Part shown: positions 7,851 through 37,883 of the stretch, in pieces
Position numbering within the stretch: position 1 is the stretch's first letter
Layout: the number at the start of each line of letters is the position of its first letter
Source: an uncultured Gammaproteobacteria bacterium
Lineage (GTDB): Bacteria > Patescibacteriota > Microgenomatia > Levybacterales > GWA1-39-11
Direction: 5' to 3'
Assembly: GCA_964485575.1 (NCBI GenBank)
Contig: CAZAJO010000005.1
Coordinates: 1,389 to 65,388, forward strand
Length of the DNA stretch: 64,000 bases
The notes under the pieces: model-generated
What the model was told of the DNA's origin: nothing
What the model saw: the letters and a program-made list of their open reading frames with translations, nothing else
The model's database searches: none
Program-made: the position numbers and the translations under genes

Positions 7851-9298
7851 TTATACACATCCCCAGCTCCAATTGTGAGTATTATGTACTCACTAGAGCT
7901 GAAGTTTTGGTCTAAGTATTCTATCACATCATCAAATTTTTCTTTGTATATGACGTCAACATTTTCGGAAAAAGCATCCACTAATTCTTTTTCAGAAATA
8001 GTATCACCCTCCGTATCTCTAGCAGATTTAAATATTGGCAGAAGCACTAACTTCTCAACTCCACTAAATGACATTGCAAAATCAGAAAGTAACGCTTTTG
8101 TCCTTGAGAATGTATGGGGCTGAAAAACACATACCAATTTTTTTTCTGGGTAACTTTTTTTGATGGATGAAATAGTCGTTACTATCTCCAATGGATGATG
8201 ACCATAATCATCTATAAGAAGTGCTCCATGAGGGGTAGTTCCAATTATTTCTGTCCTTCTTTTCGTACCGGTAAAAACCTTTAGCGCTTGACGGATTTTT
8301 TGATATTCATAACCTAATTCTGAAAGCAGAGCAACAACTGACATTGCATTTTTCGCGTTATGTATTCCTGAAATAGATAGCTCAAATAACCCCATCTCAC
8401 GTCCTTTTTTGTGAACTGTAAATTTAGTAGACAGACCAAAAGAAACAATTTTTGATATGACATAGTCATTCTCAACACCCTGACCATAAGAGACTACTGA
8501 AATGTCTTTTGTGATCTTGTCTTTAAAGGAAGACAAATATGTATCGTCACCATTTACAAACAATTTGCCACCACTTCTGATGTTGTCTGCAAGTTCCAAA
8601 AAAGCACCAACAATCTCGTCAGTGTCTTTGAAAAGGTCCGGATGATCAAAATCTATATTATTAAAGATTGCGTATCTTGGGGCAAGATAAAGGAATTTCG
8701 GAACCCGGTCATGCACGGGCTCTGAGGCATATTCATCGGCTTCTGCGATAAAATAGTCCCCACTCCCAAAATGTCCCGGGGCGGCTGAAGGAAACACCTC
8801 ACCGGTACCCACGCTGTATGAAGGGTCCAAATCTAGCGATGCCATGGTCGTTGCAAGAAGGGAAGAGATGGTGGTTTTTCCATGGGACCCTGCAACGGCA
8901 ATCCCCTGTATATTTTTGCCAAAAATATCACCTTTCATAAATATTGATAAAGCTTGCCCTTGAGAAAGAATTGCTATCTTGTTCTCCCGTGCCCACACAA
9001 CTTGTGGATTATCAAACCCCTTGTGTGCCCCTGTTGTCACGACTAGACAAAGAGCTTTTGATGTATCACTAAAAAAACTTTGGATCGAAGAAACGTCAAA
9101 CCCGGAAGACACAGCAATTTCTTTTTTTGCCAACCATACGCCTGTTATAAATTCCTCCTCAACATCAGATCCACTAACTGCAAATCCTGCCTCTTTTGCA
9201 ATAATGGCAAGCGGAGCCATCCCCACACCTTTGACTCCTACAAAGAATATTTTTTTTATTTTCTCAGGAACTCTCAACTCTTGAGTCTTATATTTCAT
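7826..9298 (-). CDS. murC: UDP-N-acetylmuramate--L-alanine ligase MurC
   Basis: N-terminal FVGVKGVGMAPLAIIAKEAGFAVSGSD, matching the MurC (HFIGIGGxGMSxLA) signature; Mur ligase central GSHGKTT P-loop. Confidence 0.8.
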   Translation of the reverse strand: MKYKTQELRVPEKIKKIFFVGVKGVGMAPLAIIAKEAGFAVSGSDVEEEFITGVWLAKKEIAVSSGFDVSSIQSFFSDTSKALCLVVTTGAHKGFDNPQVVWARENKIAILSQGQALSIFMKGDIFGKNIQGIAVAGSHGKTTISSLLATTMASLDLDPSYSVGTGEVFPSAAPGHFGSGDYFIAEADEYASEPVHDRVPKFLYLAPRYAIFNNIDFDHPDLFKDTDEIVGAFLELADNIRSGGKLFVNGDDTYLSSFKDKITKDISVVSYGQGVENDYVISKIVSFGLSTKFTVHKKGREMGLFELSISGIHNAKNAMSVVALLSELGYEYQKIRQALKVFTGTKRRTEIIGTTPHGALLIDDYGHHPLEIVTTISSIKKSYPEKKLVCVFQPHTFSRTKALLSDFAMSFSGVEKLVLLPIFKSARDTEGDTISEKELVDAFSENVDVIYKEKFDDVIEYLDQNFSSSEYIILTIGAGDVYKVSYGLKS

Positions 9299-18637: not shown

Positions 18638-19096
18638 TTAGCAGGAAATTTCGAGGGCTTGCACTCCATTAAATTCCTCATAACCCTCAGTGAGCCTTTT
18701 ATTATTTGCTTCTTTAACAAAGTTAAGTAAAATTCCAGTACCCCAAACTTCTTCATTTTCTCTAACTTGTTTCCTCAACTCTTGTATATATCTTTTTACC
18801 TGAACTGGAAATTCCTCCTTGATACCTGGCTCCGCCTTTAACTCTACGATAACAGCAGTTTTACGTCCATCATTTTTAAGCCAAACTACAAGATCTGGCC
18901 TAACGTCCCCAATGATATGTCCACTGTACGTTATTGGTAATGGCCTTTCGGTCTCATACATAATTCCTTTATCTCGAAGGGCTGTTTCCATGGCGTTGTG
19001 ATAAATCCCTTCAAGCCACCCCGGACCAAGCTCGGTCATGATTGACGAAGCGCACTCTTTTAAAGTAGCTATTAATTGTCCAACTTGCTCTTCCAT
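18638..19096 (-). CDS. GxxExxY protein (PD-(D/E)XK nuclease superfamily)
   Basis: Contains GWLEGIY, which fits the family-defining GxxExxY signature, at the usual N-terminal position; 152 aa. Confidence 0.7.
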   Translation of the reverse strand: MEEQVGQLIATLKECASSIMTELGPGWLEGIYHNAMETALRDKGIMYETERPLPITYSGHIIGDVRPDLVVWLKNDGRKTAVIVELKAEPGIKEEFPVQVKRYIQELRKQVRENEEVWGTGILLNFVKEANNKRLTEGYEEFNGVQALEISC

Positions 19097-19133: not shown

Positions 19134-20060
19134 TTATTTATCAGGGGCTGCATCATATGATTCCTTAACAATTGGAAAAACATAATTCAAATCTTTAGGG
19201 TTACTTATCTCAACCCACCACAAAGGAGTTTTACCCCAAGCATATGATGCTGGGATTTTTGTAAATCTTTTTTCCTTGTCATTTATTACTTCTTTTCTAA
19301 CAGTGATTCTAAGCTTTTCTTTAAAAAAATGGATAGCAACAAAGTTGTACCAGCTTACTTTGTAGCCGATGTAATTTCCTACCGGCTTTTCCTGAATTTT
19401 ACTATCTAAACCAAAAATTTGTTCACGCAGTTCCTGGAATAAGTCCTGAATATTTTTAGATGACTTTTTTAAATGGTCCTCAACAGTATAGGTTACGATT
19501 TCCTTTGCTGCAGTTCCTGTAAGACTACTCGATGATTTTTTCTCAAGCTTTTTATCACCACCTATTGGATTTATTTGGTCGTACTCAATAAGTCCTCCCT
19601 CGTATATGCCCACTTCCCACAACTCGAAAGGCAAATTAGGTGAGAGTGCTCTTTTTTGATAGGTACTAAATTTGGGACCGATGAACATTACTCGTGTCTG
19701 TCCCCAGTCGACATTTTTCTTGTCTATTGTCTTCCCAGTTTTTGTAATATATTCAAGCAAAACATCGGCCTTATGATCCAATACTAAATTAAGATAAGTC
19801 TGTCCTTGGTCCATCAACGAGAAATTTTCAACCTTCTTGTATTCGATAATTACAAAAGAATTGATAGCGGTATCAAAAGCAAGAGAATCGAGCCAAAAGG
19901 ACTCTATATTAAATTCTGTTGCTATAAATTCTAGACCGAAAAGTTCTTGTAAATTGTACTCAGTAAAATTCTGAAGTTCTTTTTCTTTTTTGAAATGAGA
20001 ATCAAACCCAACTTCTCGGACAGGTGTTAACTTTTTCCCATTTATTTTAAATAAAGCCAT
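19134..20060 (-). CDS. PD-(D/E)XK restriction-endonuclease-fold protein with C-terminal DUF4268-like domain
   Basis: N-terminal D...IIEYKK matches the D-(D/E)xK core motif; 308 aa. The family assignment of the C-terminal half is from memory. Confidence 0.5.
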   Translation of the reverse strand: MALFKINGKKLTPVREVGFDSHFKKEKELQNFTEYNLQELFGLEFIATEFNIESFWLDSLAFDTAINSFVIIEYKKVENFSLMDQGQTYLNLVLDHKADVLLEYITKTGKTIDKKNVDWGQTRVMFIGPKFSTYQKRALSPNLPFELWEVGIYEGGLIEYDQINPIGGDKKLEKKSSSSLTGTAAKEIVTYTVEDHLKKSSKNIQDLFQELREQIFGLDSKIQEKPVGNYIGYKVSWYNFVAIHFFKEKLRITVRKEVINDKEKRFTKIPASYAWGKTPLWWVEISNPKDLNYVFPIVKESYDAAPDK

Positions 20061-20369: not shown

Positions 20370-21065
20370 TTAATCTAACAATTTTTCGAGTTCAATTGTA
20401 GTATACATCCTCTTGATATAATAATCAACCTTATCCTTATTAAGTTCTAGGGCATCGAGATTTTGTTGAAAATTTTTTACTACAATGTTAAGTTTAATCT
20501 TATTTCCATAGAGTTTCTTTGCATTATTAACATTATCTATTGATTTAATATAGGCCTTTATAAAAACTTTTTTAGGAACGTTTCTGAACTCTTTCAATTC
20601 CCTTTTCTTTGTATAAGCCCAAGAAAGTAATGGATCCTGATATAGAAAATAAATTTCTACGTTCCTATTATGCTTGAGGGAATGATCAATATTCCCCAAT
20701 GCATCATTATATGCAAAAGTTCCATCAAGGATTATATTCAATCCCATTTTACATGCATAGTCATAAAGAATATTTACTCCTTTAGTTGCCGCCTTTTGGA
20801 AAATATATGCTTTTTTTCCTTTATAACCACTTACGAATTTTCTTATTTCATCAGCGTCAATAATTACAGGCTTTTCCTTAAATGATTCAGCAAGTCTTCG
20901 AGAAAACTCAGTTTTTCCTGCTCCTGGTGAGCCGGCCATGAAAATTGTAGTAGGATAACTATCTGTTGGGGTATTCTCTGGAACAAATTTTTTAATTAGA
21001 TCTTTTCTGTGATCTTTTATCCACAAGTGGGCATCTTCACTTTCTTTTAATTCGTGTTCTTCCAT
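20370..21065 (-). CDS. Zeta-toxin family P-loop kinase (PezT/zeta-like)
   Basis: Walker A MAGSPGAGKT near the N-terminus, at zeta-toxin-like length (231 aa) and with similar downstream motif spacing. Confidence 0.6.
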   Translation of the reverse strand: MEEHELKESEDAHLWIKDHRKDLIKKFVPENTPTDSYPTTIFMAGSPGAGKTEFSRRLAESFKEKPVIIDADEIRKFVSGYKGKKAYIFQKAATKGVNILYDYACKMGLNIILDGTFAYNDALGNIDHSLKHNRNVEIYFLYQDPLLSWAYTKKRELKEFRNVPKKVFIKAYIKSIDNVNNAKKLYGNKIKLNIVVKNFQQNLDALELNKDKVDYYIKRMYTTIELEKLLD

Positions 21066-21131: not shown

Positions 21132-22106
21132 TTAACTTACTACATCAATAAAATGTATTTGTTTATTTTTTCCCCAGTCCATAATTTTTACATACCTACC
21201 ATTGTGTTTTGTTGGGTGATTTAATTTACAACCCTCACATTCATATTTTTCAACTTTATCTGGGGTTTCCCAAAAAAGAGTTTTTTCACCTATTGTAACC
21301 TTTGTTTCGTGATGACAGCTCATGGGTATGACATATTTAAGGCCGTCCATCTGAAATATATTCCAGCTTATAATTTCAGCAAATTCTTCCAGCACATAAA
21401 GAGGTGGTCGTCTATTAAATTTAGCTTTATAGTGATCAATGAGTGTATAAAGTAGATTTTCGCGAGCAATTAAAATATTGTCACCTTGCCATTCGTAACC
21501 ATAGGAACTCTGATATGCAACTTTTGCCCACTTAATCCATTCTTTTGGCTTTTTACAGTATTTAGAAACGTAATGAAGCTTCTTGTCGAGAAAACCAACC
21601 CGGTTCTCAATCTTTATAACTGCTCCATGAGCAATTGGATTGTACCGACTTACTATAAAAGGCGCCTCACCACAAGCAATTTCAAGTTTTATTTCAGCAA
21701 CATAACTTTGCCAATTGGTTTCAGTTACTGAATTCTCATCAACCAATTTATTCATTTGGTCAATAATATGAAGTGGAGTGAACACTTCTCCCTTTTCTCT
21801 TGTACGAAAGCGCTGCTCTTCGCGGCTTTTAACAGCACGAGGCTGAATCAGCTTGCCATTAAGTCCAGTCACCAATTCAGGTTTTATCTGATTTTTTTTT
21901 GAAAACTCTTTACCGTATTTTTCGTAAGAATCAGTTGCCCAGATAATGTTCTTTTTTGTGGTCCTATCAATAAGAAGAATATCTAGAAGCTTGCCTTTCC
22001 GTCGAAGCGTGTTTTCAAGGATGTCAGCATTTTTTTCCGGTGCCATGTTATTCCACGGCTTTGACATGTGTTTCGATGAATTGAATTTCTTTCTCATCAA
22101 GTCCAT
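21132..22106 (-). CDS. Methyltransferase-like protein (gamma-class N6-MTase motifs X and I only, no NPPY) with C-terminal Cys/His Zn-ribbon-like cluster
   Basis: Contains GEVFTPLHIIDQM (motif X) and LEIACGEAPFIV (motif I), then a C-terminal CHH...CEGC cluster. It lacks (D/N)PP(Y/F/W). The true start is probably the ATG at 22046 (MAPEK), 1 nt after the stop of the upstream giant gene. Confidence 0.5.
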   Translation of the reverse strand: MDLMRKKFNSSKHMSKPWNNMAPEKNADILENTLRRKGKLLDILLIDRTTKKNIIWATDSYEKYGKEFSKKNQIKPELVTGLNGKLIQPRAVKSREEQRFRTREKGEVFTPLHIIDQMNKLVDENSVTETNWQSYVAEIKLEIACGEAPFIVSRYNPIAHGAVIKIENRVGFLDKKLHYVSKYCKKPKEWIKWAKVAYQSSYGYEWQGDNILIARENLLYTLIDHYKAKFNRRPPLYVLEEFAEIISWNIFQMDGLKYVIPMSCHHETKVTIGEKTLFWETPDKVEKYECEGCKLNHPTKHNGRYVKIMDWGKNKQIHFIDVVS

Positions 22107-25100
22107 ACTTTTTATAAAGCTGTCTGTCTATATCTGCGATGGATTTGGTCCAATCGATATCTGAATCAGATGTAAAGTCTTGGATAGGTATATATATCCA
22201 TTTTGATGGTGGGTTATCTTGCGTAATCTTTAGCACACCTAACAAGCACCTTAATAATTTTGTTTTGATATATTTTGCAGCATTAATTGCCTCAATTTCT
22301 TTATCAAAAGCCCCAATACTTATGAATGTCGGTGTAGCTGAATCTGATGGTCCACCAACTACCGGTTTACTCAAAATTTCACCAAAGGAACCACTACCGT
22401 TTGCCTTGGGAATAAAAATCTTCCATTTGCCTAGATTATTTTTTTGAGGATAGCGCGGAACCATAAATTTTTTCTCTATCCATCGCCATACTCTTTCTCC
22501 CCGATATAAGCCTAAAATTCTATAGTAATCACTTGAGTTGCTAGGATTTTGCTTCTTGAAAACATCAGTTAAGGATTCAAAAGTTGATGACTTCAATTCG
22601 TATTCTTCATTTGGTCCAAGCTCTGTGACCTCCGGGTGCTTTGCTTGAATATTCAAAAGTCGATCTTTTTTGGAATTTGGATATTCTTTTAGAAATTCTT
22701 CGTTAAATTTCAGGTCTGATCTTCCCCCAAGCATGATTGATGAAAGATTATTTTCACTGCCAGGATTGACCTTTGAAATTATTATTCTTAAATTTGCGTC
22801 TGGAATAAATTTCTTGATAGCACCAAAATTCTTGTTTTCGTCATAATAAATAATAGCTACTCCTCCTTTTATATCAGTGTTCGGAAACACTTCTTTTGAA
22901 TTTGGGTTGTAATACTGAACTTTTAAATGAGCATTATTCAGCATCTTTAAATTCCATAGCTCAGGCGTTAATCCTGCATTAAAAAGGAAGCGAGCAGGAG
23001 AAATTATGCAGTATTTTTTACTAATTCTCTCCGCTAAATCATAAAAATATTGGTAAATAGGTTCTTGTCGATTGTATCCATCGGAAGATACCTGATATGG
23101 GGGGTTCCCAACAACAACGTCAAATTTCATATTTTTGTCTTCATTAAATTTAACTAATAATTCTTCTTCTGTATTCGTTATTCCTTGCCTTAATTTCTTT
23201 ACTAGATCTTCTATATATACAACATTCATCCTCGCACCACCATATCCAGCTAGCGTACGACGGGTTATCATTTGAGCCATTGGACTTTTACAGAGCACGA
23301 AAATATTGTCTGATAGAACTTTATTCCAAAGTTGTCTAGATATTTTGTCCTCAGGATTTTTGGCCTTTCTTAACTGCCTTGAATATATGTTATAGGTCGC
23401 AAGTAAGGGATAGAGCCCTGATTTTGAATTTATCTCAAGTATTTTAGTGTCGTCTTGTGACCAAATCTCTGTAGCCTCACCTTGAATTTTCCATTCTGGC
23501 TTTCCTGATTGATCAATAATTCCACCACGGAAGTCATGACCACCCAAAGTCATAACCATTTGCATATTTACAACATTCCATGGAGTGAGTACTGTCTCCT
23601 TATCTGGATTCTTGAAAGTTGCGAATATCTCAGCTATCGCCTGTATTCGTTCAGTTGGCAAAAGATCATCGCAGTCATAAGTTTTTGCTCGAATGCTGCG
23701 GGTAACACCACGAAATACTTCTTCATCATAATATTTAATGAAGCTTCGGAACAAATCTTTACTTAGTCCTGCCGGCATAAATTCTTTCCATGATTCTTCA
23801 TCAACAAGATCAATAAAATCTTGCAGGGTAATATCTTTATGAAGAGAAACATTAGCTCCATAGACCATCATTGGCATACGTATACTAACGGCTCGCAAGA
23901 TACTAATGGCACTCCTTTTTTGCTCTCGTGCTTCCTTGAGTTTTCTTAGCGCTTCTTTCTCTTCTTCTGATAGTTCTCTTTTTTGTTTCTTTCGTTCTTC
24001 TTCCTCGGCTTTTTGTATTTCAAGATCTGTCATTCCAAGACTATTAACCTCAATCTCGTTAATACGTTCATTTGTACTTGAACCAATAATGGCTTTCAAT
24101 TTATTAAAATTATTGATCGCTAATTCATCCAATTTAAGTAGCTCATCATTGTACAGTTTGGGGTCATCAAACCCATTGCGACTTACACGATCAATAATCG
24201 CCTTCTTAAGCTGATTAAGCATCGAGCCTACATCGTAAGGCTTCATAGATCCTCCTTCTGCTGCAAGAATAGGACAGAAATTAAGAAATTGGCTCATTGC
24301 GTCTTTTTGCTCAGGTGTATTTGTCTTGCCTGATTTATGATTTAGCTCTATAGCTTCGGCAATTAGCTTAAGAGTGCGGTCAGGAGCAAAATCGAACACA
24401 TACCCTTGGGTCTTAAGCTTTCCGTCAATTTTTGCTGGTGTTTGACATCGAAATGCAGTCTGTAAGTAAGCAGTAGCAGAGCTTGTATCTGACATCATAA
24501 AGACTGCTGTCCATTCCGGAATCGATGCACCTGTGGTCAGACGCTGACCCGTAAGTGTAATTGTGTACTCATTGGCCTTTATAGCATTTGTCACTCGCTC
24601 TTTTGCATCCTTATCTTCCTCGTCAACATGATTATTTCCTGAAATGTTTACTATTCCGAACTGACCAAAAATTGGGTGTTCTTTGAGCAACTTCTCCATA
24701 GCTTCAATAACTTTAACTCGATTAGGCAATAGCCACAAAGAGTGCTTATTGTAGTTACGGTATTCTTCTGTTGCATATGGAAACTTTGTTTGGAGTGTAT
24801 TGTCCACTAGTAAATCCAAGAATTTATTAACCATCTCTTCATGAACAAACTCTGCAACATCATTACCTTCATCGTCTTTATGTACTCGAAAAAATTCATG
24901 GAATTTGAAAGCACCATCTAGTGCATCTTTAAATTCAGTACCAAGACTTCCGATGTGACTTGCATATTTATCAATATCATAAGTAAACATGCTAAGAGCC
25001 GGTAATTCAGCATAGGGATTTGGCTTACCAGGATGATGCACGTCCCAGAAGAACTTCTCTTCCTGCTCCATCACATAATCCCAAGTATAAATATCTCTTT

Positions 25101-26073
25101 CTTCGTGCTTATGTAAAATATTAAATGGTGTACCTGAAAGTTGAAGAGTGAAGTTTCTTGGAATTTTTTCAAAAGTAGCTTCTCCTAGGATGCTTTGAGT
25201 ACCTTCATGAGCCTCATCTACGATAAGCATATCCCAAGTTGCATCGAAGACTTCATCGTTTTTATCAAATCCTCGCGCACCTGAATGAGCTGCTTCATCT
25301 ACAACAACTCTTTTGGAAAGACGTAAATCTTGTAATGAAGCAAAATAAATAAAAGGCTTATCACCTTTAACAAGTGTGCTAATATTTTCACCCTTAGTTC
25401 TGGATGAATATTCGTAATTTGTGCCTTCAAATACTTTATTAAAGTCGTCATACCAGTCTACACTTACGCTCGGACGATGCGTAACGATGAGCACCTTTTT
25501 CATCTCATTATCTTTGGCTACCTGCATAGCAGCTGATGTTTTACCAAAGCGCATTTTGGCATTCCAGAGAAAATGTTTACGATTTTGCTTGATTGCCTTG
25601 GTGGTTTTTTCTATAGCATCAAGTTGATTAGGTCTGAAGACAAATTCTCCATGCTTTTCATTTATTCTTTCTTCGGTATTAAGAGAAATCCGGCCTTCTC
25701 TAGCAGCGTTTATTGCATTTTTTGCTACATCAAGACTGATTTCAAACCATTCAGAATGATAATTTTTTGTATTTTCTGATTTTCGCTGGAAACCTGAACG
25801 CATCAATATTCGATGCACGGGTTTATCAACATCTTCAGGCTTATTGCCTGGAGTGGTTAAGATTTCAGCCAATAGTAATTTGTATGCCACGTCAGCTGTC
25901 TTTGTCTGTTGCTCGATGCGTTTTCTTGCAGCTTTTTCTATGGCTTCTTTTGAATTTATTGTTGTCGTTGCAGCACCAATCTTGAGCCGTCCCTTGTGAC
26001 TTCCGTCCCCAATGGTATAAACGTAAATGACTCCGTAGGAGAAAGTCTCATGAATTACATGTTGATTATCCAT
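22048..26073 (-). CDS. T5orf172 (GIY-YIG-like) - SF2 helicase - N6-adenine DNA methyltransferase - C-terminal target-recognition-like fusion protein; Type ISP-like single-chain restriction-modification candidate
   Basis: The N-terminus has YVYTIGD...GRLKIGAATT...HSEWFEI, a T5orf172/MUG113 signature. The helicase part has motif I RFGKTSAA, motif II LIVDEAH and motif III LSGTP. The MTase part has motif X VLTPWNVVNMQMV, motif I ILEINSKSGLY and motif IV VVVGNPPYQ. A roughly 340-aa C-terminal region would act as the target recognition domain. Confidence 0.7.
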   Translation of the reverse strand: MDNQHVIHETFSYGVIYVYTIGDGSHKGRLKIGAATTTINSKEAIEKAARKRIEQQTKTADVAYKLLLAEILTTPGNKPEDVDKPVHRILMRSGFQRKSENTKNYHSEWFEISLDVAKNAINAAREGRISLNTEERINEKHGEFVFRPNQLDAIEKTTKAIKQNRKHFLWNAKMRFGKTSAAMQVAKDNEMKKVLIVTHRPSVSVDWYDDFNKVFEGTNYEYSSRTKGENISTLVKGDKPFIYFASLQDLRLSKRVVVDEAAHSGARGFDKNDEVFDATWDMLIVDEAHEGTQSILGEATFEKIPRNFTLQLSGTPFNILHKHEERDIYTWDYVMEQEEKFFWDVHHPGKPNPYAELPALSMFTYDIDKYASHIGSLGTEFKDALDGAFKFHEFFRVHKDDEGNDVAEFVHEEMVNKFLDLLVDNTLQTKFPYATEEYRNYNKHSLWLLPNRVKVIEAMEKLLKEHPIFGQFGIVNISGNNHVDEEDKDAKERVTNAIKANEYTITLTGQRLTTGASIPEWTAVFMMSDTSSATAYLQTAFRCQTPAKIDGKLKTQGYVFDFAPDRTLKLIAEAIELNHKSGKTNTPEQKDAMSQFLNFCPILAAEGGSMKPYDVGSMLNQLKKAIIDRVSRNGFDDPKLYNDELLKLDELAINNFNKLKAIIGSSTNERINEIEVNSLGMTDLEIQKAEEEERKKQKRELSEEEKEALRKLKEAREQKRSAISILRAVSIRMPMMVYGANVSLHKDITLQDFIDLVDEESWKEFMPAGLSKDLFRSFIKYYDEEVFRGVTRSIRAKTYDCDDLLPTERIQAIAEIFATFKNPDKETVLTPWNVVNMQMVMTLGGHDFRGGIIDQSGKPEWKIQGEATEIWSQDDTKILEINSKSGLYPLLATYNIYSRQLRKAKNPEDKISRQLWNKVLSDNIFVLCKSPMAQMITRRTLAGYGGARMNVVYIEDLVKKLRQGITNTEEELLVKFNEDKNMKFDVVVGNPPYQVSSDGYNRQEPIYQYFYDLAERISKKYCIISPARFLFNAGLTPELWNLKMLNNAHLKVQYYNPNSKEVFPNTDIKGGVAIIYYDENKNFGAIKKFIPDANLRIIISKVNPGSENNLSSIMLGGRSDLKFNEEFLKEYPNSKKDRLLNIQAKHPEVTELGPNEEYELKSSTFESLTDVFKKQNPSNSSDYYRILGLYRGERVWRWIEKKFMVPRYPQKNNLGKWKIFIPKANGSGSFGEILSKPVVGGPSDSATPTFISIGAFDKEIEAINAAKYIKTKLLRCLLGVLKITQDNPPSKWIYIPIQDFTSDSDIDWTKSIADIDRQLYKKYGLDEKEIQFIETHVKAVE

Positions 26074-26092: not shown

Positions 26093-26098
26093 ATTCTA
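26093..26098 (-). promoter_or_regulatory. Extended -10 element (TGgTAGAAT) upstream of the giant RM-like gene
   Basis: On the minus strand, TGGTAGAAT lies 20 nt upstream of the ATG at 26073, with an A-tract further upstream. The same TGGTA(C/G)AAT architecture recurs at 26722-26730 and 27412-27420. Confidence 0.4.
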
Positions 26099-26179
26099 CC
26101 ACTCTTGAGGCTGAAATGCTATTTTTTGAGGATTCTCGATTCTTCTATAATTATAACTCTATTAACAAATGCTGCACTT

Positions 26180-26434
26180 CTATGTGTGACATAAAAATCC
26201 CAAAGACCACCAATAACAATGACCAGAAAAAATATCAACAAACCACTTAACTATATATATCCAATAATTAATGGTCCAAAGAACAATGGATAGTACCACA
26301 ATTATCCCTATGATGTTTCTTCCAAGATTCTGCATTTTTTGGGAAGATTTTATTTCGGTACTTTTTTCTAATTCATCTTTAATTACTTTGGGTAAATCTG
26401 GATAAGTCATAAAAGTTTTTATATGAGAATTCAA
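26180..26434 (-). CDS. Small hypothetical membrane protein
   Basis: 84 aa with one TM helix; coding status uncertain. Confidence 0.3.
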   Translation of the reverse strand: MNSHIKTFMTYPDLPKVIKDELEKSTEIKSSQKMQNLGRNIIGIIVVLSIVLWTINYWIYIVKWFVDIFSGHCYWWSLGFLCHT

Positions 26435-26670
26435 ATATCATTTTTTTGTTCAAACATTTTTAAGAGCAGGGGTTCTGAAATGGCTACCGTTACTGCTCCT
26501 CCAAAAAAACTCCCTGTAATTTCCTTAATGATTAATCCGATAATTAAGGCTACTATAGTAGCAATTATTATGCCAAATTTTTTATACTTCTGTTTTGATG
26601 TTGATTGGGAATCGTTTTTTCTCCTTCTTTTTCGAAGCAGATAAAAAATGAAAGTAACAGGAAGAAGCAT
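26431..26670 (-). CDS. Small hypothetical membrane protein
   Basis: 79 aa with a basic N-terminus and one TM helix. Confidence 0.3.
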   Translation of the reverse strand: MLLPVTFIFYLLRKRRRKNDSQSTSKQKYKKFGIIIATIVALIIGLIIKEITGSFFGGAVTVAISEPLLLKMFEQKNDI

Positions 26671-36622: not shown

Positions 36623-37750
36623 TTATACACCACTCTTTCCAGTTGAGATCTTTTCCCAAGGAAAACCTGTGCGACCGAAGTGACCATAGGCAGCAGTTGA
36701 GCTGTAAATCGGTCGTGCCAACTTTAACGTTTCGATAATAGACCTGACTGACGTATCAATGAGCTTATCCTTAAAATCAAATAGCGCCTTCTCACTCACA
36801 GTAGATGTACCGAAGGTCTCAATTGTCTGCATTAGAGGTCTTGGCTGCCCTATGACATATGCAAGACCAACTTCACATTTTGTAGCAAGACCAGATGCTA
36901 CAATATTTTTTGCGATATAACGGGCAGCATATGCTCCTGATCTGTCGACTTTACTAGGATCTTTTCCAGAGAAAGCGCCACCACCAACCCGCGCGTATCC
37001 TCCATATGTGTCAACGACAATCTTTCTACCCGTAAGTCCAGCATCTGACTCCGGACCTGGGATATGCCACAATCCTGTACCGTTAATAGTTATGTCTGAG
37101 TCTTTCGGAAGCTCTAGTTTGTATTTTCTAAGAACGGGTCTGAAGACATTTTTGATGATCTCATCCCTAACTTGATCAGCTTCCGTCTTTTCATCATGGG
37201 CAACTGCTGCAACGAGTTTTTCTATCCCAATCGGGATACCTTTTTCGTATTTGACTGTCACTTGAGCTTTCCCATCTGGGCGTAGCCATTTCAATATTTT
37301 CTTCTCCCTCACCTCATCTATGCGCTCAACTAAAGCATGTGCCATTCTTATGGGTAAGGGCATCAACTCAGGTGTTTCATTACAGGCATACCCAAACATC
37401 ATGCCTTGATCTCCTGCTCCATCAAGGTCAACACCCATTGCAATTTCTGGAGATTGAGCGTGTATACTGTTGGTGAAAGAAGATTTCTGGCTGAATCCCC
37501 ATGCGGGAACAGTATACCCAAGTTCCTTTACTTTATTTCTGGCTATTTTTTCAAAATTGATTTTTGACTTAGTTCTTATCTCACCAAAAAGACAAATTTG
37601 ATTTGCACCGGCAACAGTCTCTATGCCACATCTGGAATTTGGGTCAGAGGCAAGAGCTGCATCCACAATTGCGTCACTTATCTGATCGCAAATCTTGTCG
37701 GGATGTCCTGCACAAACTGATTCTGAAGTAAAAAGGTAATTCTTTGACAT
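36623..37750 (-). CDS. metK: S-adenosylmethionine synthetase MetK
   Basis: GHPDKICDQISDAIVDA signature. The true start is probably the ATG at 37750 (MSKNYLFTSESV), not the upstream TTG at 37768. Confidence 0.9.
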   Translation of the reverse strand: MSKNYLFTSESVCAGHPDKICDQISDAIVDAALASDPNSRCGIETVAGANQICLFGEIRTKSKINFEKIARNKVKELGYTVPAWGFSQKSSFTNSIHAQSPEIAMGVDLDGAGDQGMMFGYACNETPELMPLPIRMAHALVERIDEVREKKILKWLRPDGKAQVTVKYEKGIPIGIEKLVAAVAHDEKTEADQVRDEIIKNVFRPVLRKYKLELPKDSDITINGTGLWHIPGPESDAGLTGRKIVVDTYGGYARVGGGAFSGKDPSKVDRSGAYAARYIAKNIVASGLATKCEVGLAYVIGQPRPLMQTIETFGTSTVSEKALFDFKDKLIDTSVRSIIETLKLARPIYSSTAAYGHFGRTGFPWEKISTGKSGV

Positions 37751-37757
37751 AATTTTT

Positions 37758-37846
37758 TCCTTGGGCAAGGACGCATCGCTTTGGCAAGCTTGGCACCGAT
37801 AAATTTACGGTTGCCGTTCGTAGCTATACGAAACTCTTGATGCAGA
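37758..37846 (-). promoter_or_regulatory. Candidate SAM-I-family (S-box-like) riboswitch with SD-sequestering hairpin in the metK leader
   Basis: The minus-strand leader reads UCUGCAUCAAGAG...CGGCAACC...GGUGCCAA...AAAGCGAUGCG. It shares the exact octamers AUCAAGAG, CGGCAACC and GGUGCCAA, in the same order, with the canonical yitJ/metF S-box, as I recall it. P1 pairs GCAUC with GAUGC, and UCCUU/AAGGA pairing sequesters the SD. Confidence 0.4.
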
Positions 37847-37883
37847 TATTATTTAAACAAATTGGGAAAAGAAAAACAAGAGA

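Follow-up and report, generated by a model that had tools for sequence, protein, structure and literature searches.

The window described here is a stretch of 64,000 nucleotides from an uncultured bacterium placed by GTDB in the Patescibacteriota (assembly GCA_964485575.1, contig CAZAJO010000005.1, positions 1,389 to 65,388 of the forward strand). Its subject is a pair of adjacent genes on the minus strand, a large open reading frame (ORF) of 1341 codons plus stop with an ATG start (22048..26073) and a partner gene encoding 304 residues (21132..22046). By analogy with the enzymes LlaGI and LlaBIII, the large gene and its partner probably form a two-gene, ATP-dependent restriction-modification (RM) system built like Type ISP. 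An earlier reading made from the letters alone, the sequence-only reading, had proposed an RM enzyme of Type ISP-like design, and this proposal is supported by profile domains, by a collinear structural match and by a hypervariable block that swaps independently of its surroundings. The same reading had described a single polypeptide acting as an autonomous unit, a description that has to be given up, the partner gene adjoining the large gene in all 78 loci where this could be assessed. The copy in the window is judged, from its sequence, to be an ordinary member of a common, database-annotated two-gene family of Type ISP-like RM systems.

Modules of the large protein

The large protein comprises, in order, a T5orf172 head, a superfamily 2 (SF2) helicase, a coupler, a gamma-class N6-adenine methyltransferase (MTase), a target-recognition domain (TRD) and a C-terminal domain. 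The 1341-residue ORF claimed at 22048-26073 is present, and its strand, which had been left unstated, is minus. All the motifs quoted for it were identified in the translation: IYVYTIGD, GRLKIGAATT and HSEWFEI in the head; FGKT, DEAH and SGTP in the helicase; and ETVLTPWNVVNMQMV, ILEINSKSGLY and NPPY in the MTase. The Pfam search that had been recommended matched T5orf172, ResIII and Eco57I and bears out the claimed order of nuclease head, SF2 motor, gamma MTase and variable recognition region. T5orf172 (PF10544) covers residues 17-123 of the full protein (E 2.5e-5, 25.1 bits against a curated cut-off of 20), ResIII residues 144-317 (E 1.5e-16) and Eco57I residues 923-1063 (E 1.5e-21). Searched in isolation, the head domain reached 30.8 bits with PF10544 (E 4.4e-7, cut-off 20). 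Among 20 diverse homologues of the large protein this family was matched by 16, and MUG113 by nine. The head had been claimed to be T5orf172 and not Mrr/PD-(D/E)XK; this is correct, with neither an Mrr nor a PD-(D/E)XK match. No NCBIfam family was found for the large protein or for the partner.

The T5orf172 domain, which belongs to the GIY-YIG clan, occupies residues 13-125 (25699..26037, minus strand) as delimited by PF10544, conservation and secondary structure. Its core is predicted to be beta-beta-alpha-beta-alpha, with strands at 13-21, 30-37 and 64-71 and helices at 42-57 and 83-92, modelled at a predicted local distance difference test (pLDDT) score of about 75-87. Residue conservation was assessed in 68 full-length homologues from several phyla, 40-72% identical. 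Y17, K31, G33, R52, H87 and E108 of the head are invariant or nearly so; K31-I-G33 is the equivalent of 'YIG', and Y17, R52 and E108, the presumed catalytic Tyr/Arg/Glu, are invariant. Nuclease activity of a T5orf172 protein has been demonstrated for Odn/Gp88 of phage ICP1 (PMC8263062).

The best-conserved part of the large protein is the SF2 helicase-like ATPase with its two RecA lobes, residues 144-640 (24154..25644, minus strand). It contains the motifs that define an SF2 ATPase, namely I (GKT), Ia (THRP), II (DEAH), III (SGT) and VI (Q538/R542), all of them invariant, with I, II and III formed by G177-K178-T179, D286-E287-A288-H289 and S313-G314-T315. It is followed by a 'coupler'-like linker at residues 641-820 (23614..24153, minus strand), mostly helical by secondary structure, lying within the collinear alignment to LlaBIII and LlaGI and including a charged coiled segment at about residues 683-730.

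The gamma N6-adenine MTase catalytic domain, residues 821-1080 (22834..23613, minus strand), was located by Pfam Eco57I, the model and motif alignments. As in gamma N6-adenine MTases, it has a Rossmann fold, the motif order X, I, IV and NPPY as the catalytic loop, and both motif X (NPDKETVLTPW) and motif IV (N990-P991-P992-Y993) are invariant. The residues predicted to be catalytic are invariant in all three modules. The claim of a 'complete' gamma MTase holds for motif IV, which is canonical, but not for motif I (EINSKSG) or the motif II position, which are atypical family-wide: in the motif alignments every homologue has EINSK(S/T)G at the former and [C/A/N]K[S/T]P, lacking an acidic residue, at the latter. 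Motif I contains a single Gly, Lys replaces the first Gly, and the loop is not of the canonical GxG type.

The AlphaFold models comprise residues 640-1341 (pLDDT 83.5) and residues 1-1200 (pLDDT 72, predicted template modelling score, pTM, 0.50). The comparison with LlaGI and LlaBIII structures that had been proposed as a check gave these two enzymes as the top Foldseek matches to residues 1-1200, both collinear: LlaBIII (4xqk_A) with E 4e-13 over 1147 columns, and LlaGI (5ffj_B) with E 3e-11 over 1115 columns. The MTase-TRD half, searched with the model of residues 640-1341, matches CamA, PglX/BrxX, LlaBIII, DrdV and LlaGI and is also structurally similar to MmeI, and the motor resembles SauUSI and Snf2-type translocases. 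Shared with LlaGI and LlaBIII are the order of nuclease, SF2 ATPase, helical coupler, gamma N6-adenine MTase and TRD on one chain, and the occurrence on plasmids of lactic acid bacteria. The differences are the head, which is Mrr/PD-(D/E)XK in those enzymes and T5orf172/GIY-YIG-like here; the extra conserved C-terminal domain past the TRD and the atypical motifs I and II of the large protein; and the second gene, which is obligatory here whereas Type ISP enzymes are single polypeptides.

The likely TRD is the hypervariable block at residues 1081-1200 (22474..22833, minus strand), recognized by its identity profile and its swapping. The sequence-only reading had assigned target recognition to a C-terminal region of roughly 340 residues; a variable part does exist, but hypervariability is confined to residues ~1081-1200 and residues 1201-1341 are conserved. 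In homologues 63-78% identical overall, this block retains 12-28% identity to the query, with indels; in the wider family it falls to 7-20% with up to 60% gaps. Among close relatives the motor is 80-92% identical and the MTase 50-70%, and past the block conservation returns over residues 1240-1341. The homologue closest in backbone (P0001, 86%) shares only 35% identity in the TRD block, and three others (P0002-P0004) with 79% in the backbone share 72-74% in it. The block therefore swaps independently of the backbone, as is characteristic of a target-recognition domain that can be exchanged; lying between conserved flanks, it behaves as the specificity module of an RM enzyme, as had been expected.

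The conserved C-terminal domain, residues 1201-1341 (22051..22473, minus strand), ends in ...DIDWTKSIADIDRQLYKKYGLDEKEIQFIETHV... and was defined by PADLOC profiles PDLC03375 and PDLC03626 and by alignment. It is common to stand-alone half MTases and whole MTases. PDLC03375 matches residues 1215-1338; PDLC03626 (REase_MTase_IIG) matches with E 1e-48, its best stretch being residues 979-1338, mostly the last ~350 residues. Type IIG/IIL enzymes (Eco57I, MmeI, DrdV, BpuSI) likewise carry nuclease, Eco57I-class gamma MTase and TRD on one chain, and the hits to Pfam Eco57I and REase_MTase_IIG and the resemblance of the MTase-TRD half to DrdV and MmeI reflect this likeness. Those enzymes, however, cleave at a fixed distance, have a PD-(D/E)XK head and lack an ATPase motor. 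The large protein does not fit Type IIG, with the IIG profile covering part of it only, an SF2 ATPase present and a T5orf172 head. Additional silent TRD cassettes were searched for within the window and none was identified. In two other loci, extra fragments resembling the C-terminal region of the large protein are present apart from the main gene (L045, 1192-1503; L034, 11302-11427), and these may be silent specificity cassettes.

The half-methylase partner

The partner (21132..22046, minus strand) was identified by its motifs, PADLOC profile and fusions as the S-adenosylmethionine (SAM)-binding N-terminal half of a gamma MTase. Its ATG lies at 22046, one base past the TAA of the large ORF. 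Of 84 loci, 78 have the partner next to the large gene and on its strand; the other six end at a contig edge on the relevant side. The partner is downstream of the large gene in the Patescibacteria clade and upstream in most other clades, the adjacency being kept, and a partner at 67-68% identity also follows the large gene on unrelated metagenomic contigs. In lactic acid bacteria the partner is a 230-residue variant, and it is this variant that is carried by the loci seemingly without a partner; canonical SAM-binding motifs were sought in the large protein at those loci and were not found. The partner family has at least 6,060 matches, with 2,016 representatives at 50% clustering, and is about as large as the family of the large protein.

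Conserved in the partner are motif X (EVFTPL), motif I (LEIxCGEAPF, LEIACGEAPF in the window copy), YGYE, corresponding to beta2 with its acidic residue, and the residues C244, C270, C273 and H281. It contains neither motif IV nor a TRD nor any hypervariable region, and from the lack of the last it follows that the partner alone does not read the variable DNA target. Its PADLOC label is 'MTase_II' (PDLC03390, E 3e-93); names given by NCBI include 'restriction endonuclease subunit M' and, in the case of the plasmid variant, 'N-6 DNA methylase'. The 230-residue variant is homologous to the window partner (E 2.7e-8) and has fully canonical SAM-binding motifs, FLEPAAGDGNFLV and IYGIE. It passes the Pfam N6_Mtase threshold, over profile positions 20-105 of 311 only, and weakly matches MmeI_Mtase, below its cut-off. 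This variant is the sole link of the partner to N6_Mtase, and Pfam gave nothing consistent on 48 partner homologues.

The placement of the partner comes from single-chain relatives of 630-720 residues, in which MKFDxVIGNPPYQ comes directly after the partner domain, and then a variable region and the C-terminal domain of the large protein. These relatives correspond to PDLC03390 plus PDLC03375, for which PADLOC has a separate profile for each half. Their layout makes the partner the SAM-binding N-terminal half of a gamma methylase, and its matching C-terminal half is, on sequence grounds, the end of the large protein. The same family of MTases, single-chain or split into two ORFs, is therefore alike in having the partner as first half and the last ~350 residues of the large protein as second; it differs in that the window places the T5orf172-helicase-coupler part between the two halves, along with a further, divergent N-terminal MTase half. 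A PD-(D/E)XK nuclease like that at the N terminus of Type IIG enzymes was also considered for the partner and rejected: in the single-chain relatives beta4-NPPY follows directly after the partner domain, so the partner must supply beta1-beta3 of the Rossmann fold. Other fusions join the partner domain to coupler, MTase and TRD with no helicase (P0344, 933 residues) or to a ResIII helicase (P0333, 1125 residues), and point to a modular family of related systems.

The large protein has an N-terminal MTase half of its own, in which beta1-beta4 are confidently modelled. Profile-profile comparison of partner and large protein revealed no similarity, so the partner is not a simple duplicate of this N-terminal half. 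The motif content of the two proteins is complementary.

Predicted mechanism and competing explanations

In the predicted mechanism, recognition of a short asymmetric DNA site, and testing of its adenine for methylation, would fall to the MTase domain and variable TRD of the large protein. N6-adenine methylation would protect the sites of the host, and unmodified sites would license the SF2 motor to translocate along the DNA. The N-terminal T5orf172 (GIY-YIG-like) nuclease would cut following collision or dimerisation, probably off-site. The 304-residue partner would be an obligatory accessory SAM-binding subunit, most likely required for or controlling the methylation arm, that is, self-protection. 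The proposed methylation, ATP-driven translocation, cleavage and role of the partner are all drawn by analogy with LlaGI and LlaBIII.

Several points weigh against such a system. The full-length structural matches have low TM-scores (0.16-0.20), because the inter-domain geometry of the model is uncertain, and they thus support a collinear architecture and not a shared quaternary arrangement. No sequence homology to LlaGI or LlaBIII was detected with phmmer or with family-profile hmmsearch against all PDB sequences; kinship to Type ISP at the sequence level was not borne out, neither search returning these enzymes, and PDB sequence searches with the whole protein and with family, partner and head-domain profiles gave nothing meaningful. 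With a non-canonical motif I and no motif II acid, MTase activity of the large protein is not assured. DnmA-YeeB-YeeC, a related three-gene system of Bacillus subtilis, methylates GACGAG and showed no restriction under the conditions tested (PMC9973331). Finally, no biochemical characterisation of the large-protein family was found in the searchable literature.

A different division of labour between the two proteins, which we regard as unlikely, would make the MTase domain of the large protein a sensor of site and methylation without productive SAM binding, with methyl transfer needing the partner, and the bound or unbound state of the partner would set modification versus restriction. In its fullest form, given an equally low probability, the large enzyme without the partner would sense unmethylated sites and restrict but could not methylate, and a single methylase gene would have been split by insertion of the nuclease and helicase. 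The model of the large protein does not favour this, as it has a complete Rossmann fold of its own and no obvious room for a second N-terminal half. M.TaqI-like enzymes, moreover, accept non-Gly residues in motif I. What speaks for it is that the large protein has NPPY with a degenerate motif I while the partner has X, I and II with no IV or TRD, that the partner domain is directly joined to the NPPY-TRD-C-terminal half in the 630-720-residue single-chain relatives, that separate PADLOC profiles exist for each half and that co-occurrence of the partner is obligate. A precedent for methylases activated by accessory proteins is MANTIS (MtsA-D), which also uses a helicase-nuclease effector (bioRxiv 10.64898/2026.09.23.753747), and the MTase-TRD module of the large protein is structurally close to PglX/BrxX of BREX. 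Both differ from the pair in the window in being multi-protein, hemimethylation-based systems, whereas the large protein has motor, nuclease and MTase on one chain; none of their other genes (PglZ, BrxC/L, the AAA+ MtsA) was seen in the window.

The two-gene RM system has also to be set against functions without restriction of unmodified DNA. An epigenetic or orphan methylase-helicase module, as proposed for DnmA-YeeB-YeeC of B. subtilis, is improbable. The DnmA(YeeA)-YeeB-YeeC clusters are alike in having a gamma MTase with TRD, an SF2 helicase and a T5orf172 nuclease and in occurring in defence islands, and they have been predicted to be an ATP-dependent RM-like system with one-strand methylation (PMC2731913, PMC9973331). 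They differ in being three separate polypeptides, fused in the large protein, with an MTase of the MmeI type and no half-methylase partner described; no MmeI_* Pfam domain was matched in the large protein. The B. subtilis three-gene cluster gave no phage or transformation phenotype (PMC9973331) and some copies of the family are decaying, as with the in-frame stop in L072, both in keeping with a module that does not restrict. The DNA methylation by this cluster, and the protection against phage given by its Vibrio homologues, which alter phage sensitivity, count in favour of the two-gene RM system (PMC9973331). In the family of the large protein the catalytic residues of nuclease and ATPase are strictly conserved across phyla, the TRD diversification is typical of arms-race selection, and the gene is found on plasmids and in defence islands. 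Less likely still, and very unlikely, is a modification-dependent (Type IV-like) enzyme or a repair or recombination helicase-nuclease whose MTase-like module serves for DNA binding alone. The resemblance of the motor to SauUSI and Snf2-type translocases and the atypical SAM-binding motifs of the large protein would fit such an enzyme, but NPPY and motif X are invariant, and a hypervariable TRD with a SAM-binding subunit is better matched to methylation that protects the host than to repair. The epigenetic, Type IV-like and repair roles are all made less likely by the conservation of the nuclease and ATPase residues, by the diversification of the TRD and by the mobile, defence-island setting.

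Spread of the family and genomic setting

The architecture had been presented as novel, which it is not: it has thousands of members, many on plasmids of lactic acid bacteria, is routinely annotated by NCBI and had relatives mentioned in 2009 and 2012. Among 5.8 billion proteins searched, more than 7,500 were homologues at E<=1e-10, and relatives occur in at least 596 species, counting one genome per GTDB species. Among the matches listed, the closest relatives are from Patescibacteria/Saccharibacteria (62-72% identity), and a clade at 40-46% identity includes Bacteroidota, Bacillota, Spirochaetota, Verrucomicrobiota and others. The large protein is present in 88 plasmid records, 39 of them from Enterococcus and nine from Lactococcus, and in only four phage records; near-identical DNA was sought in phage records and none was found. 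Examples of plasmid homologues are those of pCV56A (WP_014570254/WP_014570255) and pKLC4 (WP_015007087/WP_015007086). The exact large protein is also present in a public read-set assembly. On Lactococcus/Leuconostoc plasmids (L085, 3518-3952; L086, 3566-4000) the large protein has ~145 extra N-terminal residues before the head. The copy in Lactobacillus delbrueckii subsp. bulgaricus (L072, about 8290-8865) is probably decaying: its MTase region is interrupted by an in-frame stop, and the first ~48 residues are missing.

In the literature, Morgan et al. described in 2009 MmeI homologues that have a helicase and a GIY-YIG protein as flanking neighbours (PMC2731913), and a 2012 paper on Type ISP enzymes mentioned related RM enzymes with helicase domains and other nuclease families, 'e.g. 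GIY-YIG' (PMC3553950). A published listing of nuclease domains in N6A R-M systems includes T5orf172 (PMC4738411), and a table of defence-island families, citing Makarova 2011, has it too (PMC7251935). Fused R-M enzymes and 'I SP' systems have been reported from plasmids in a lactococcal methylome study of 2025 (PMC12418389). No paper describing the half-methylase partner was found in the literature searched.

The window is chromosomal and includes MraW, PBP and prolyl-tRNA synthetase-like genes. Downstream of the gene pair, all on the minus strand, are three genes of defence type: 20370-21065 encodes a zeta-toxin-like kinase with no evident antitoxin, 19134-20060 is PDC-S18/DUF5655, a defence candidate of PADLOC (E 2.6e-84), and 18638-19096 encodes a GxxExxY PD-(D/E)XK protein. 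The GC fraction is 0.33-0.38 over about 18-28 kb compared with about 0.40 around it, and together with the defence-type genes this suggests a small defence island. At homologous loci Mrr or GmrSD were identified directly upstream. Because their presence beside the pair is not conserved, all these genes are neighbours within the island rather than parts of the system. Immediately upstream of the large gene are two small hydrophobic ORFs of 84 and 79 residues (26180-26670, minus strand), which an identical public contig (L087) also has as called genes and which are not conserved beside homologues elsewhere.

The large gene had been credited with its own promoter. The extended -10-like string TGGTAGAAT is present (26093..26101, minus strand), 19 nucleotides upstream of the ATG, but promoter-like sites in the region are no commoner than in shuffled sequence (23 against 28.6 +/- 6.6 expected), so the string is no evidence of a promoter. 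Elsewhere in the window, a SAM-I/IV riboswitch aptamer (37743-37848, minus strand; Rfam RF01725, 47.5 bits against a gathering score of 41.1) was identified at the 5' end of the ORF at 36623-37768.

The large gene itself is no unique invention, and the point worth pursuing is the half-methylase gene universally linked to it. The family is common on Enterococcus and Lactococcus plasmids, and no study of it was found. If it works as predicted, its occurrence in at least 596 species genomes would place it among the most widespread restriction enzymes that are ATP-dependent and single-chain. A GIY-YIG-type nuclease would then be seen to serve in the Type ISP design, and the obligatory half-methylase partner could reveal a new coupling or gating of host-protective methylation.

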